From positions 35,833 through 99,832 of the IMG/VR virus record IMGVR_UViG_3300017598_000768: DNA of 64,000 nucleotides; one strand, 5' to 3'. This stretch comes from a virus. Below, piece by piece: positions 4,355-39,340 of this stretch. Made by a program: the position numbers and the translations under genes. The stretch's first letter is position 1. Each line of letters begins with the position of its first letter. The notes beneath the pieces are model-generated. The model did not search any database. It worked only from the letters and a program-made list of their open reading frames with translations, and was not told where the DNA came from.

Positions 4355-5272
4355 TTAATGAGGCCAATTCGACAGCCAGTCTTCGATATCCTCCGTCATC
4401 TGACCTCTAATAATTTTTCTGTGATCTTCGCAAGTCGACAGAACACTGTCCAAAATCGAAAACCAAATTCGCCTGCTGCCTCTCCTCTGACTGTCAATAA
4501 ATCGTGTGGCGAGATCTACACCTCCAAATAAATAATTCGCGATCGTTCTATTTCGAACATAATCGTCTTTGTTCCAGCTATACCCTCTCCTGTCTCCATG
4601 GTGATACAACGGCTCGCCCGGCATGATCCACTTCTTTCTGCCAGTAACAGCAAGGGCAAAATTCATAAAATTTTCGCCTCCGCCATAGATCCCAAGCTCG
4701 GCAGGCCAGCCTCCCAATTCATCATACAGTTTTCGGGTCATCATCATTCCGCACGTAGACATGCACGGAACCTCGTATGGAAAATCTGCATCCCAATACC
4801 CTTTAAAGGTATAATGAATATCTCCGACTGAGAGGTCTGACTTCAGCCCATAAATCAGCTTCTTCCTTTCAAGGATTTGATACGTGAGCGGAAGATGCAT
4901 CGTGCCATTCAAAGATTCGTGGTTTTCTCTGTAATACTCGAACATCTTCCAAAGAGCCCCTCTCCCAACCATGCAGTGGGCGTCGCAATGCCACAGGAAC
5001 TTCCCGGACGAATTTTCTATTCCGACTCGCTTTGCATTCCAATGCGACAGCTTATCATTATATTTCACAACCTTCAGCCATGGATGATACTTCCTGATCC
5101 CCCACATGTACGGGGTCCCTCTATCTTCTTTGCCTACTGACGGGTGAAAGTTATCGATCGCAATGATCTCAAAATTCACTCTTCCTCTAAGCTCCTCTAC
5201 AATGCTCCGGATCGTGAAAACCACTTGAGCCCATTCATTCACGAACGGCACGATGCAACTAAGCTCTATCAT
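4355..5272 (-). CDS. GT-A glycosyltransferase resembling the catalytic domain of polypeptide N-acetylgalactosaminyltransferase (GT27-like)
   Basis: SCIVPFVNEW..TIRSI; GKFLWHCDAHC (DxH motif); PCMSTCGMMMTRKLYDELGGW; GIYGGGEN (cf. WGGEN); distal His. Confidence 0.85.
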   Translation of the reverse strand: MIELSCIVPFVNEWAQVVFTIRSIVEELRGRVNFEIIAIDNFHPSVGKEDRGTPYMWGIRKYHPWLKVVKYNDKLSHWNAKRVGIENSSGKFLWHCDAHCMVGRGALWKMFEYYRENHESLNGTMHLPLTYQILERKKLIYGLKSDLSVGDIHYTFKGYWDADFPYEVPCMSTCGMMMTRKLYDELGGWPAELGIYGGGENFMNFALAVTGRKKWIMPGEPLYHHGDRRGYSWNKDDYVRNRTIANYLFGGVDLATRFIDSQRRGSRRIWFSILDSVLSTCEDHRKIIRGQMTEDIEDWLSNWPH

Positions 5273-5673
5273 ATCCTCCCTCCTTGTCTTCTGAAGCCAC
5301 GTGCTTTCAACACTTCTTGCTTGAACTTCGGAAAATCACCTACCAACGCACTTGACAGATCAAGCACATCCTCCACCTTAATCGACGCAAAATGGACAAC
5401 GTGAGCAGAAGCGAGTCTCACCTGCTTCCCCTTCATCTTCTTTATCTTCGCTTTAAAACCTGCCGACTTCTTGATCAGACCATAATAATCTAAAGCGAGA
5501 ACCAAATCTGTACCAACTGTTGTCCCTATTATCTTCCCAAATGACGAAGCCGTCAATCTTCCGTCACGAACGGCTACAAGTTCAAGCTGCCCGAGCACAC
5601 CTTTGCGAACTCCAGACAACATCACCTCTTCTTCAAACCTGCCTAAATACTTTCTGAAGTCTGTTCTTTTCAT
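5269..5673 (-). CDS. Hypothetical protein
   Basis: ORF with ATGA overlaps on both sides within the glycan cluster. Confidence 0.7.
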   Translation of the reverse strand: MKRTDFRKYLGRFEEEVMLSGVRKGVLGQLELVAVRDGRLTASSFGKIIGTTVGTDLVLALDYYGLIKKSAGFKAKIKKMKGKQVRLASAHVVHFASIKVEDVLDLSSALVGDFPKFKQEVLKARGFRRQGGRI

Positions 5674-6173
5674 TTTGGTCTCTTTATCATCCTTGCGGGC
5701 GATCCAACATAAATGGCTCCTGGAACGTCGCAGTTCTTTGTCACGTATGACATTGCCCCGATTTTTACCCTATCAGCAATCTTGATACCGAAGTTTATCA
5801 CAGTCGCCGTACCTATAAAAACATCTTCACCTACTATGATCGGGTTCTGGTGAGGATCTCCTTTGGCATCCATGTAAATCGTCATCACGTTCGGAGAGAT
5901 AAAAACATTCTCACGCACAATCACATTTCGCGCAATCGTAACCCCGTACTTCAGAATCGACCCGTCGCCGACTTCGTTACTTCCAGAGCTTCGCACATAG
6001 CTGTCAAGGATAACTCCGTGTCCGATTTTAGTCCCTGCCTTCAGATGTACGTAGCTTCCAATAACAGCTCCATTCCCAATAACAACTCCGTCTTCTATAA
6101 CGCAGAAATGCCCAATGTTGAAATTGACACCTATATCAACATGCTTTCCTATGACATTACCATTCACCATCAT
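5670..6173 (-). CDS. Hexapeptide-repeat (left-handed beta-helix) acyltransferase
   Basis: [IV]GxxxxIG repeats, VTKN..PGAIYVGSPAR; start moved to ATG 6173 after GGAGG. Confidence 0.85.
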   Translation of the reverse strand: MMVNGNVIGKHVDIGVNFNIGHFCVIEDGVVIGNGAVIGSYVHLKAGTKIGHGVILDSYVRSSGSNEVGDGSILKYGVTIARNVIVRENVFISPNVMTIYMDAKGDPHQNPIIVGEDVFIGTATVINFGIKIADRVKIGAMSYVTKNCDVPGAIYVGSPARMIKRPK

Positions 6174-6918
6174 AACCTCCAATCCTTCTTGCGGGCGATC
6201 CGACATACGTTCCCGGCTTCTCAATATCTTTTGACGCCACAGACCCGATGCCCAAACGCACTCCAGAAGCAATCTTGATGTTATCCCTCACCAACGCACC
6301 CATCCCAAACCAACAGCCTTCCCCTATCTTTGCCGATCCTCCGATATGAACATTCTCCGCCAACATCGTTCCAGCCCCTATTTCGACGTTATGTCCAACA
6401 TTGCAATGGCCTCCAATTTTCACCTCTTCCATAAGAACCGTCGAGTCAATAGTCCCTCTGTTGACTATACTAAGCGGCCCCACTTCAACAGCATCTCTCA
6501 TTACAATATTGCCCATGTGCTTCATACGAACCAGCCCAGACTCTCCACGAACAAATCGCATTCCTTCAGCACCAATCACCGCTGTTGGGTGTATCACAAC
6601 CGATGGAGCAAATTCATTCGCTGCTGGAGTCCTATGCCGGTTTACCTCGTTGTGAAACAACACGAACGTCTTTATCAAACCATCCACAACTATCGGCCTA
6701 ATCTTCTTCTTAACTTCCACAGGCAACTGCTGAGCACGATATGAAAGCTCCTTCGGCACCAACGTGAACAAATCTACACTCATCGCACTTAGAATTGACA
6801 ACCACCGCTCATCCTTCGCAAACGTCACTGAGTTGCGTTTCGGATTCTTTATCGTACATGTCGCACGAAAACCGTGAGTCAGCCTAATCAGCTCATCTAA
6901 CGTTACATGCCCTATCAT
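6157..6918 (-). CDS. LpxD-like hexapeptide acyltransferase
   Basis: [47 protein letters not shown]. Confidence 0.85.
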
Positions 6919-38142: not shown

Positions 38143-38374
38143 AAAACCTTTGTTGGTAGGGTTCTCCGTTCACGTTCTGCCCTTCACTCACAATTTTCGG
38201 CATGTCTTCCACCAAAAACATTGGCCCATCATCATTCTTGAGTCTCTGTAGACGCAGAGCAACATGAACCGGACAGGGCTTCTTCTCCCCACCGAAAAAT
38301 TCAATTGTTCTGTTACCTACAGGCACCAAATAATTCTGATACGGAGCCTTGAGCAGCGTAACCTTCGGCATCAT
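38120..38374 (-). CDS. Hypothetical head-region protein
   Basis: ORF after the capsid gene with GAGGT RBS. Confidence 0.65.
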   Translation of the reverse strand: MMPKVTLLKAPYQNYLVPVGNRTIEFFGGEKKPCPVHVALRLQRLKNDDGPMFLVEDMPKIVSEGQNVNGEPYQQRFFESGTEN

Positions 38375-38398
38375 ACCTCACCTCATTTAATAAACGAT

Positions 38399-39340
38399 TT
38401 ATACAGTCGTGGTCGGTGCGTCATTCGGATTCAGTCCGATACACTTCACCACAGAGTCCTCTTCCTCGTACTTAATATCAATACGAAGCGTCAGGACAAC
38501 GATCAGCACTCTGGCCCGGATGTCACGATCCGTCTCGATCATAATCTTTCTCTGAACGCCGAGGATCATGTTTTTCGGATAAGTGAAAATATACTTATCG
38601 TCAGGCATCAAGGCTGCTGGTACAACAGGGACTCCATAAGCCGGATTCGGCGTCCATCGTGCAATCTTCGAATCGCCGAGGGCCGTTTCACGATCTGCCA
38701 GCGAATCAGCATACTCTGTCTCTGCATCCGGAGATACATAGAAACGCATGGCTGCGCGGTTTCTCATGTACTTATTCGGCATAGCTTTAATGCCTTGTTT
38801 GAACACCGCTTTGGTAATCGTGGGCTGCACGTCTGTGTAATCCACCACATGACTTATAGACTGTTTCAGCATTCCGTCTTTCAACTTCAGGAATGCATCC
38901 GCACCGGCAGCAATGTCTCCCTGAATCAGCAACTCTTCAAGGTCGAGCGACGCACGCTCGGTGATCAGTACCATGATCGTATCCTCAAGCCGCCCTCTCT
39001 CGATGTTATCTTCGAGAACGTCATAGGGGATATGAACTTCGGCGATGACTTCGCTGGTGGTCAATGTCACCTGCTCAGTAGTCGGCTTTGATCTGTCTGA
39101 TGCATCCAGCGCTGTTCCTGATGCCGGGGCAACCTTCAAAATTCGACTTCCAAAACCGATCTTGTTGATCTCCATCGTCGGAGCGTCCATGGGCACTACC
39201 CTTACTTCCTTGATGAGAGTTGGCTGATCAATCAACATCCGGATAAACGTGTTCGCTTGGATCGGATTCAGATAACCACCTGTACCTGTTAAATCTCCAA
39301 CCGCAAGGTCAGCTTTCTCAACAATGCTTCTGTTAGACAT
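38399..39340 (-). CDS. Major capsid protein (HK97 fold, XkdG-like)
   Basis: GGYLNPIQANTFI, LEDNIER, DLEELLIQGD, DGMLKQ; ends DAPTTTV. Confidence 0.93.
   Translation of the reverse strand: MSNRSIVEKADLAVGDLTGTGGYLNPIQANTFIRMLIDQPTLIKEVRVVPMDAPTMEINKIGFGSRILKVAPASGTALDASDRSKPTTEQVTLTTSEVIAEVHIPYDVLEDNIERGRLEDTIMVLITERASLDLEELLIQGDIAAGADAFLKLKDGMLKQSISHVVDYTDVQPTITKAVFKQGIKAMPNKYMRNRAAMRFYVSPDAETEYADSLADRETALGDSKIARWTPNPAYGVPVVPAALMPDDKYIFTYPKNMILGVQRKIMIETDRDIRARVLIVVLTLRIDIKYEEEDSVVKCIGLNPNDAPTTTV

Follow-up and report, generated by a model that had tools for sequence, protein, structure and literature searches.

A predicted mucin-like virion O-glycosylation system in the genome of an uncultured phage

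Known glycosylation systems and their likeness to the phage genes

Mucin-type O-glycosylation is started in eukaryotes by the ppGalNAc-Ts (CAZy GT27). In this work, the product of a phage gene at 4355 to 5272 was found to share with them a GT-A catalytic domain in which DxH, GGE and a third His follow in the same order, and the presumed acceptors are likewise dense Thr/Ser runs, often after Pro. On the other hand, the phage enzyme lacks a ricin-type lectin domain as well as a stem and a membrane anchor, its identity to the ppGalNAc-Ts is only 13–17%, and it would work in the bacterial cytoplasm, whereas GT27 enzymes work in the Golgi. Some large viruses also decorate their particles independently of the host machinery. 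Chlorovirus PBCV-1 (capsid) and mimivirus (fibrils) do so with their own glycosyltransferases and nucleotide-sugar genes, and the phage resembles them in having a nucleotide-sugar set of dehydratase, aminotransferase, N-acetyltransferase and methyltransferase beside its glycosyltransferases. However, they are viruses of eukaryotes with other acceptor sites and enzymes, and they are not known to have poly-Thr tags on tail proteins.

To our knowledge, the only virion O-glycosylation of this sort proven so far is that of mycobacteriophages; it was proven by experiment, whereas the phage described here is known from its genes alone. According to the available accounts of that work, mycobacteriophages Che8, Corndog and Myrna are proposed to attach O-linked glycans to capsid and tube proteins at their C-termini by means of transferases that they encode themselves (Freeman et al. 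2023, Cell Host Microbe 31:1216; PMC12619734, PMC12363180, PMC11600133); these enzymes are accompanied by methyltransferase genes (Freeman et al. 2023, via PMC12619734, PMC12363180). The phage genome described here also contains transferases, with C-terminal candidate acceptors on the capsid and tube. Nevertheless, the Che8 capsid ends in NKTGS and its tube in YSDGS without a poly-Thr tag, while the phage here has poly-Thr/Ser tags, and on more proteins (also the adaptor, a small head protein, the distal tail and a putative fibre). The presumed acceptors are long mucin-like tracts of up to 157 aa. Che8 gp108-110 showed no similarity to the GT27-like or GT4-like profile (hmmsearch scores of at most 1 bit), and tblastn against 50,697 phage records gave no actinobacteriophage match to the core enzymes. 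Since both the Che8 enzymes and the acceptor ends are unrelated, the system here differs from mycobacteriophage virion O-glycosylation. Moreover, the host is unlikely to be an actinobacterium, because sigma-54-type promoters occur in the window (the 64,000-nucleotide stretch of DNA that was analysed, whose positions are used throughout) and contigs related to this phage were binned with Desulfobacteraceae MAGs.

Thr/Ser tags on virion proteins

The source genome, an uncultured phage of 99,832 bp, was scanned end to end for Thr/Ser tracts. Long tracts were found on virion proteins only, namely the adaptor, an 84-aa head-region protein, the tail tube, the distal-tail protein and a putative fibre; with the short PTTTV of the capsid included, six particle proteins end in, or are interrupted by, Thr/Ser runs. 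Every tract listed in the initial annotation was recovered, on the minus (coding) strand, and its statement that non-structural genes are free of them agrees with the scan, since no further tract was found in coding-strand ORFs over all 99,832 bp. The remaining matches were short S/T-rich stretches in ORFs of the opposite, non-coding strand. All features given below lie on the minus strand.

The major capsid protein (38399 to 39340, 313 aa; phrog_1623, E 1.6e-104) has about 50% identity to proteins annotated as major capsid proteins in phages of Stenotrophomonas, Vibrio and Bacillus. Its own tag consists of three Thr only, which was counted against the glycosylation reading. The PTTTV end is weak on its own, and it is counted as a tag because capsids of relatives end in up to 11 S/T residues (range 3–11). 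The head-tail adaptor Ad1 (37480 to 38142, 220 aa; phrog_477 over residues 1–149) has a 41-aa Thr/Ser tail at aa 180–220, and the adaptor tails of relatives have 5–31 residues. The 84-aa basic, Gly/Arg-rich head-region protein at 37214 to 37468, known from its translation and with no family match found, ends in a 33-aa Thr/Ser tail, and its positional counterparts are tagged in two relatives, G002 (80 aa) and G004 (128 aa, three PTTTTTTTV units). A 129-aa ORF call at 37214 to 37603 was rejected as an artefact that starts inside the tract of the adaptor in another frame. The tube or major tail protein (35388 to 35942, 184 aa), assigned to phrog_807 ('major tail protein with Ig-like domain') over residues 9–100 only, ends in T11; tube tags of relatives have 4–29 residues. 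The longest protein of the set is a distal-tail (Dit/DUF2460-like) fusion of 1218 aa at 27840 to 31496, matching phrog_1082 over residues 7–590 and DUF2460 with an E of 3.7e-6, below the Pfam cut-off. It contains an internal Thr/Ser tract of 157 aa at aa 404–560 in addition to a T9 C-terminus. A putative tail fibre or spike of 468 aa (14989 to 16395) carries a 25-aa Thr/Ser tail. This tail had been noted before, but the fibre identity given with it follows from the position among tail genes, as no Pfam or PHROG match was found and the protein atlas gives weak leads only (HylP-like and T4 gp9/10-like clusters).

Within the tracts, Thr is encoded by ACG (83), ACC (54), ACA (29) and ACT (23), in line with the earlier observation that all four codons are mixed, and several Ser codons are interleaved with them. 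This mix, which also differs from the genome-wide one, is therefore not the result of single-codon slippage. The runs are often preceded by Pro, the reading frame is kept through them up to the natural stop, and tags recur at homologous positions across dozens of metagenomes assembled independently.

The two core transferases and a putative tailoring cluster

The gene at 4355 to 5272 encodes a soluble GT27-like (ppGalNAc-T-like) GT-A glycosyltransferase of 305 aa. Pfam assigned PF00535 to its N-terminal half only. In a profile search against the PDB, the matches were ppGalNAc-T10, T9, T7, T12, T4, T1 and T2, the best being ppGalNAc-T10 (E 5e-8, residues 5–226) and the whole set spanning residues 5–239, whereas GT2 enzymes matched the N-terminal half only. 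The AF2 model is a single domain (pLDDT 92.6), for which Foldseek ranks 1–46 were all ppGalNAc-Ts (TM 0.66–0.79). The independent VIA-align comparison, all-against-48k, gave Z of 27.3 and 25.7 for ppGalNAc-Ts against 19.9 for the next family, with an rmsd of 3.0 over 283 of the 305 residues for the best match. The search of GT27 versus GT2 suggested earlier thus places the enzyme beside GT27 and not among ordinary GT2 enzymes. Nevertheless, bacterial single-domain proteins with PF00535 plus PF02709 and a similar predicted fold occur in Bacillota and Actinomycetota, so the ppGalNAc-Ts as nearest solved structures may partly reflect what was crystallised.

The DAHC and GIYGGGEN motifs reported in the initial annotation are present in ppGalNAc-T order, and D97, H99, G197–E200 and H224 do not vary among 19 homologues. 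In ppGalNAc-T10 and PGANT9 the aligned stretches are DSHC, WGGE and VGH, so that the GT27 order of DxH, Gal/GalNAc-T (GGE) motif and third His ligand is kept, and D97, H99, E200 and H224 fall on Mn-binding residues and the GGE motif. The likeness claimed in that annotation therefore holds for fold and motifs, but the lectin domain (PF00652 was not found in the protein) and membrane anchor of true ppGalNAc-Ts are missing. No signal peptide, membrane segment or N-terminal hydrophobic stretch was found in the protein, whose first beta-strand of the Rossmann-like fold begins at residue 4; the enzyme would thus work in the cytoplasm, the site of virion assembly. We propose it as the initiating protein O-glycosyltransferase, as predicted from its sequence and model.

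The conserved partner of this gene is a GT4-like retaining GT-B glycosyltransferase at 9814 to 11115, assigned by fold, motif and linkage. The Pfam Glyco_transf_4 match has an E of 0.0036 only. Its AF2 model (pLDDT 90.6) has MshA, BshA, PimA and other GT4 enzymes as Foldseek neighbours (E 4e-14), and the E-x7-E motif (E330...E338) is invariant within FPTxxE(S/T)FGLVxPE. No homologue of it was found in cultured phages. The partner gene matches the GT27-like gene in conservation: it occurs in 33 of the 39 loci that have the latter, usually lying 1–8 kb upstream, and it often sits directly downstream of a tagged gene, the end of which lies less than 300 bp away in nine loci. Such conservation and placement would also fit swapped roles, in which the GT4-like enzyme puts the first sugar on Thr/Ser and the GT27-like enzyme extends it. 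GtfA-type GT4 enzymes, which initiate O-glycosylation of serine-rich repeat adhesins in Gram-positive bacteria, are a precedent, and one relative (G007) retains the GT4-like gene beside tagged proteins. We regard this exchange of roles as unlikely, since the fold neighbours of the GT4-like enzyme are generic small-molecule or lipid enzymes with none acting on peptides among the matches listed, the nearest structures of the GT27-like enzyme all act on Thr/Ser-rich peptides, and two loci (L006 and L189) have tags and a GT27-like gene with no GT4-like gene within reach.

Several genes between the two transferases and next to them may tailor the glycan. A SAM-dependent methyltransferase at 11156 to 11866 (Methyltransf_25 at the cut-off, Methyltransf_11 above it) is weakly similar to the oligosaccharide methyltransferase MftM and probably methylates sugars. 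A possible methyltransferase at 8556 to 9215 matches Methyltransf_24 weakly (E 0.005, below the cut-off) and has a 35% identical homologue in one related locus (L002). The Glyco_trans_1_2-type glycosyltransferase at 7606 to 8559 (PF13524, E 2.8e-19) is a variable member with homologues in some loci only. Three left-handed beta-helix acyltransferases, at 5670 to 6272, 6157 to 6918 and 6915 to 7649 (Hexapep E 8e-16, 2e-12 and 2e-27), are also present in some relatives only; with NeuD/PglB/VioB sugar acetyltransferases and LpxD N-acyltransferase as their best NCBIfam matches, all below cut-offs, they are predicted probably to N-acylate nucleotide amino sugars. The cluster also includes a 203-aa protein with no family match (9212 to 9823). 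A 134-aa protein adjoining the transferase (5269 to 5673) is often found beside the GT27-like gene, but it probably lies outside the system because it is kept in relative G010, which lacks the whole cluster. Genes for nucleotide amino sugars (dehydratase, aminotransferase and 2-epimerase) are located outside the cluster, near ParB and terminase, and the genome also has a thymidylate-synthase-like gene. The candidate system of the initial annotation, which was right about tags and transferase, had overlooked the GT4-like partner, the tailoring cluster and the amino-sugar genes. Furthermore, the gene run does not end with 4355 to 5272 as had been stated: all genes are on the same strand, and an ORF without assigned function and then a family-A DNA polymerase come next.

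Co-occurrence of tags and transferases and the proposed pathway

By comparing capsid relatives, seven tagged records were found to carry the transferase, and two tagged fragments end short of its expected position, one retaining the GT4 partner, while the transferase was found in none of the 14 untagged relatives (Fisher p 1.5e-4, and 8.6e-6 without the two truncated fragments). In whole-genome scans, at least three tagged proteins were present in all ten transferase-bearing genomes (G000, G001, G002, G004, G031, G033, G037, G041, G042 and G043), five of them with unrelated capsids, and tags were seen in none of five transferase-less relatives. G042 and G043 had been chosen as potential counter-examples because no tag lies less than 10 kb from the transferase, but their tags were found elsewhere in the genome. 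In G010, with 71–72% capsid identity, the cluster and all tags are missing and the junction is intact (gp77-like, orf134, a further ORF, w3242-like, PolA). The phages with unrelated capsids have the GT27-like and GT4-like genes, the tape measure, sometimes the tube, and the tags in common, and nothing else. Within this sample, the co-occurrence test proposed earlier thus found tags and transferase strictly present or absent together, also in unrelated phage lineages (10 of 10 versus 0 of 14). About four changes of the trait are placed on the capsid tree, two of them forced by well-supported branches; with only two to four independent contrasts, all concordant, a sign test cannot reach significance. 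Among 185,579 species genomes, the GT27-like gene had six matches, all on MAG contigs; all four contigs that reach upstream carry tags and the GT4-like gene, and three of them also have recognisable tail genes. In the broader fold class, tags do not always accompany the enzyme, as the cultured Tunturiibacter phage Tunturi_4 has a distant homologue (25% identity) beside untagged virion proteins.

These data also bear on the idea that the tracts are unglycosylated linkers or 'entropic bristles' and that the cluster has another target, such as phage DNA, a host surface polysaccharide or some small molecule. The internal distal-tail tract does resemble a domain linker, the thymidylate-synthase-like gene and the nucleotide-amino-sugar pathway could serve DNA modification, and DNA glucosylation and serotype conversion are the functions classically ascribed to phage glycosyltransferases (PMC12619734). 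However, the joint gain and loss of tags and enzyme pair in related and unrelated phages would then have no explanation, and the thymidylate-synthase-like homologue is absent in G001, G002 and G004, which retain both core transferases and tags; the transferase thus shows no linkage to an enzyme that forms hydroxymethyl-pyrimidines, as would be looked for in a phage DNA glycosylation system. The GT27-like enzyme is also soluble, unlike the bactoprenol-linked serotype-conversion enzymes, and hardly any bacterial genome contains it, so we consider this explanation quite improbable. That the tracts are functionless artefacts or neutral low-complexity expansions from replication slippage or assembly errors, as their widely differing lengths among close relatives (e.g., tube tags of 4 to 29) might suggest for unstable repeats, is highly improbable and already contradicted, being refuted by the interleaved codons and the conserved tract positions, besides the preserved frame and the confinement to virion proteins.

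It is therefore likely that the phage encodes a mucin-like virion O-glycosylation system, a prediction made from genes and supported by the tags, the folds and motifs of the enzymes, the gene linkage and the co-occurrence. We hypothesize that, late in infection, exposed virion proteins would be made with disordered poly-Thr/Ser tags, placed at the C-terminus or, for the distal-tail protein, within the chain as a linker, and we infer that these tags are the acceptors. In the host cytoplasm, the GT27-like enzyme, with D97, H99 and H224 as its putative Mn2+ site, would transfer the first sugar from a UDP-sugar onto Thr/Ser hydroxyls, and the GT4-like enzyme would add a second one. Both the order of these two core enzymes and the identity of the first sugar, probably HexNAc, are deduced in the same way. 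The lineage-variable enzymes (the further glycosyltransferase, the three NeuD/LpxD-like acyltransferases and the methyltransferases) may then tailor the glycan; the acyltransferases would draw their substrates from the dehydratase, aminotransferase and 2-epimerase that the phage itself encodes. The outcome would be a dense glycan brush on head, neck, tail and tail tip. As to the benefit to the phage, also deduced, we can only speculate that such a coat might serve shielding, anti-adsorption or biofilm transit. If the proposed system is real, it would mean that virion O-glycosylation extends to enzymes and acceptors unlike those of the mycobacteriophages.

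Structural module and Thr/Ser tags

The IMG/VR contig of 99,832 bp, of which the window spans bases 35833-99832, is estimated to be 86% complete, and the minus strand carries all genes of the window. PHROG and Pfam searches established a siphovirus structural module on this strand, which comprises the prohead protease (40494-41084), the major capsid protein (38399-39340; phrog_1623, E 1.6e-104), the Ad1 adaptor (37480-38142), a Neck1-type tail completion protein (36400-36813), the tail tube (35388-35942), the tail assembly chaperone (34910-35311), the tape measure protein (31493-34750), a DUF2460/Dit-like distal-tail protein (27840-31496), and RcGTA-like tail-tip proteins. 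The closest cultured phages are siphophages of Stenotrophomonas, Vibrio, Bacillus, Rhodobacter, and Rhizobium, with a capsid identity of at most 50%. The phage also encodes a tRNA-Tyr with the GTA anticodon (54117-54203, minus strand). The family-A DNA polymerase gene (2-3232, minus strand), which runs on upstream of the window, carries an N-terminal domain of the uracil-DNA-glycosylase superfamily and an insert at residues ~660-880 with weak intein-splicing and HNH endonuclease matches.

A script applied to all ORFs of the window found exactly five minus-strand proteins with long Thr/Ser tracts. These are the adaptor (aa 180-220), an 84-aa basic protein (37214-37468, last 33 aa), the tail tube (T11 end), the distal-tail protein (aa 404-560 and a T9 end), and the product of ORF 14989-16395 (last 25 aa), for which no confirmation of a fibre role was found and the label is putative. 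The capsid additionally ends in PTTTV. The same scan of the whole genome yielded no further tracts in coding-strand ORFs. The tagged virion proteins listed in the initial annotation, including the capsid, are all recovered. The adaptor tract at 37480-37603, read in another frame, forms an Asp/His-rich open frame that stretches the downstream 84-aa gene into a spurious 129-aa ORF (37214-37603). The short gene product encoded between the adaptor and the following neck gene varies greatly among phages: it has 84 aa and one tag here (37214-37468) and 80 aa and two tracts in the scanned genome G002, and in G004 (60821-61207, L158) it is 128 aa long and contains three PTTTTTTTV units. It may be hardly more than a glycan-tag carrier.

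The GT27-like enzyme and its glycan gene cluster

For the gene at 4355-5272 (minus strand), the Pfam match is to a GT2-type domain and covers no more than its N-terminal half. When the PDB was searched with the bare sequence, polypeptide GalNAc-transferases (ppGalNAc-Ts, the GT27 family) ranked first. A profile of 19 homologues found ppGalNAc-T10 at E 5e-8 over residues 5-226 and PGANT9 over residues 4-239, whereas the match to ordinary GT2 enzymes such as TarP is restricted to the first ~125 residues. In the alignment, D97-x-H99 falls on the DSH motif and G197-G-G-E200 on WGGE, and the invariant H224 aligns with the histidine of VGH, which is the third Mn2+ ligand. AlphaFold models the protein with high confidence (pLDDT 92.6), and Foldseek ranks 1-46 of the model are all ppGalNAc-Ts, the first other protein being TarP at rank 50. 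A second search, with an aligner that does not depend on Foldseek and 48,161 representative chains as targets, scored two ppGalNAc-Ts at Z 27.3 (283 residues, rmsd 3.0) and 25.7 and the next family at Z 19.9. The resemblance to ppGalNAc-Ts noted in the initial annotation is supported by profile, Foldseek, and independent aligner alike, which place the enzyme next to GT27 rather than ordinary GT2 enzymes. Neither a lectin domain nor a membrane anchor is present in the protein, which is therefore regarded as a soluble, cytoplasmic, catalytic-domain-only relative. Single-domain bacterial clusters from Bacillota and Actinomycetota in a protein atlas match the enzyme in Pfam combination and are similar to it in predicted fold, so the modelled structure places the enzyme beside the ppGalNAc-Ts and does not imply strict GT27 membership.

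The metagenomic family of this enzyme has at least 789 members. A tblastn search of 50,697 cultured phage genomes gave a single match at E ≤1e-5, gp2 of Tunturi_4, a cultured phage of the acidobacterium Tunturiibacter (L165, PP885687.1). This homologue (1567-2565, 25% identity) has DNHC and GYAGEE motifs and sits between the large terminase and portal genes. No poly-Thr tags were found on Tunturi_4 virion proteins, so not every member of the wider fold class is linked to tags.

The initial annotation had recognized the transferase and missed the full glycan cluster upstream of it. This cluster, all on the minus strand, includes three left-handed beta-helix acyltransferases (5670-7649; NeuD/PglB/VioB- and LpxD-like), a Glyco_trans_1_2 transferase (7606-8559), a weakly assigned methyltransferase (8556-9215), a GT4-like GT-B enzyme of 433 aa (9814-11115), and a SAM methyltransferase (11156-11866). 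The model of the GT4-like enzyme (pLDDT 90.6) resembles MshA, BshA, PimA, and other retaining GT4 enzymes, and its E-x7-E motif is invariant; the PDB sequence profile gave marginal matches only. No homologue of it was found by tblastn among the 50,697 cultured phage genomes, and the searches with the two core enzymes gave no cultured model for the system. The ORF adjoining the transferase, orf134 (5269-5673), was rejected as a third core gene because it is retained in the related genome G010, from which the cluster is missing. A nucleotide-amino-sugar gene set (7095-14010 of the full contig, G000:C1; L163), located about 22-29 kb ahead of the window, encodes a UDP-GlcNAc 2-epimerase, an NAD-dependent epimerase/dehydratase, a DegT aminotransferase, a methyltransferase, an SGNH hydrolase, and another GT-B enzyme. 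Judged from these predicted functions, the set would suffice to make an unusual N-acylated amino sugar, which could feed the virion glycan or DNA modification. A flavin reductase gene lies near this set and a thymidylate-synthase-like gene further upstream.

Joint occurrence of tags and core enzymes

Searches of viral contigs and species genomes yielded 39 non-redundant loci with a GT27-like homologue. The GT4-like gene is present in 33 of them, usually 1-8 kb upstream on the same strand, and the genes between the two are variable. Tagged ORFs lie inside the fetched flanks of 26/39 loci, and in nine loci the end of a tagged gene lies no more than 300 bp from the GT4-like gene. In cellular genomes the family is nearly absent: among 185,579 species there were six GT27-like matches, every one on a MAG contig. 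Four of these contigs extend upstream of the GT27-like gene; tags and the GT4-like gene are present on all four, and recognizable tail genes on three.

The C-termini of capsid, adaptor, and tube proteins were read in 80 capsid relatives, and the enzyme profile was searched in 23 of the longer records. The enzyme is present in 7/7 tagged records of sufficient length and in 0/14 untagged records, including five with a completeness of 99% or more. It is missing from two tagged records (G006, G007), which are fragments that stop short of its expected position, and one of them keeps the GT4-like gene. For the association among these capsid relatives, Fisher p is 1.5e-4 (8.6e-6 excluding the two fragments). 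In the whole-genome scan, the present phage (G000), G001, G002, and G004 have 5-6 tagged proteins each, and no tags were found in the enzyme-less G010, G011, G016, G017, and G018. The cleanest case of joint absence is G010, whose capsid is 72% identical and which keeps the order of gp77-like adaptor, orf134, a 137-aa ORF, a w3242-like gene, and DNA polymerase. Despite this syntenic neighbourhood, it lacks the GT27-like gene, the whole cluster, and the tags.

Six phages with unrelated capsids (G031, G033, G037, G041, G042, G043) each have multiple tagged proteins. Little is shared with the present phage apart from the enzyme pair, the tape measure, and in some cases the tube. The complete genomes G042 and G043 have no tags in the 10 kb on either side of the enzyme and were for this reason picked as likely counter-examples; they were rejected, as their tags are elsewhere in the genome. 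Two further candidates with the enzyme and without tags (G026, G029) are fragments ending before the structural genes, and the genome with the untagged capsid L044 has three tagged proteins beside the GT4-like gene. The co-occurrence of tags and transferase, proposed as a check at the outset, holds in this sample for both capsid relatives and unrelated lineages.

Mapped on the capsid tree, the joint trait shows about four changes, of which well-supported branches force two, and tag and enzyme change together each time. A phylogenetic sign test has 2-4 independent contrasts on this tree, which are too few for formal significance. The lineages with unrelated capsids are independent support, though without matched enzyme-less relatives. 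Two records inside the tagged capsid clade, L049 and L053, lack the transferase, and their capsids end in ...ATGLTATGTTTY, possibly a tag remnant after enzyme loss.

A candidate virion O-glycosylation system

We hypothesize, with good confidence for a prediction made from sequence, that these genes form a phage virion O-glycosylation system with the tags as acceptors, a core enzyme pair, and variable tailoring. The tags would be disordered, exposed acceptor tracts, on which the soluble GT27-like enzyme would start O-glycosylation in the cytoplasm. The GT4-like enzyme would then add a conserved second sugar, and the variable enzymes would complete a lineage-specific glycan. Within the glycosylation reading, we consider the reverse order of action of the two core enzymes improbable. 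It is very improbable that the tags are unglycosylated linkers and that the cluster acts elsewhere, a reading that does not explain the joint gain or loss of tags and enzyme. Neutral low-complexity expansion has a negligible chance of explaining the repetitive tracts, in which Thr codons are interleaved (ACG 83, ACC 54, ACA 29, ACT 23) with several Ser codons mixed in and ACC makes up 29% as against 12% in the genome, so that selection at the protein level, as first suggested from the use of all four Thr codons, is indicated.

A broader form of the glycosylation hypothesis is doubtful. It takes this large family of tailed-phage enzymes as true ppGalNAc-T relatives that start dense O-glycosylation of poly-Thr tags in the bacterial cytoplasm, so that mucin-type O-glycosylation would be no eukaryotic invention. 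A mucin-like coat would cover the whole particle, the hosts would probably be Gram-negative and sediment-dwelling, and eukaryotic GT27 might descend from this prokaryotic or viral lineage.

Three exact matches to a sigma-54-type promoter (TGGCACG-N4-WTGCA) lie on the coding (minus) strand at 45167-45182, 47880-47895, and 51757-51772, and with one mismatch allowed there are four matches against 0.65 expected, which suggests a host with sigma-54. Four of the six MAG contigs (L191, L192, L193, L195) were assigned by binning to Deltaproteobacteria or Desulfobacteraceae, which hints weakly at the host group; L191, L193, and L195 have tagged ORFs as well as the GT4-like gene, with tail-gene homologues too in L191 and L195. 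To our knowledge, Actinobacteria generally lack sigma-54. The promoter matches and the Desulfobacteraceae binning point away from them as host.

We know of experimental proof of bacteriophage virion glycosylation for some mycobacteriophages only, and in 2023 Freeman and colleagues reportedly saw little evidence for it elsewhere. According to later papers that describe this work, Che8, Corndog, and Myrna have O-linked glycans on capsid and tube C-termini, made by their own transferases (Freeman et al., 2023, via PMC12619734, PMC12363180, PMC11600133). The Che8 capsid ends in ...NKTGS and the tube in ...YSDGS, neither C-terminus with a poly-Thr tag, and Che8 gp108-110 have no profile similarity to either core enzyme. 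Both systems place phage-made glycans on C-termini of exposed subunits, here as predicted, but they differ in acceptor, enzymes, number of decorated proteins, and probably host group. No prior description of a phage GT27, of poly-Thr tags, or of the present system was found in the searchable literature.

The locus and its many metagenomic relatives point to a second, mechanistically different virion glycosylation system. Its hallmarks are acceptor tags of a mucin-like type on almost all exposed virion proteins, a conserved enzyme pair, one member of which is shaped like the initiators of animal mucin glycosylation, and a glycan-tailoring cassette that can be swapped. If the system is confirmed, glycoengineers would gain a small soluble enzyme and a short genetically encoded tag for O-glycosylation in the bacterial cytoplasm, and it would bear on the origin of GT27 enzymes. 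It would also change the picture of phage surfaces, including their charge, stickiness, access for proteases and antibodies, and transport through biofilm or sediment.
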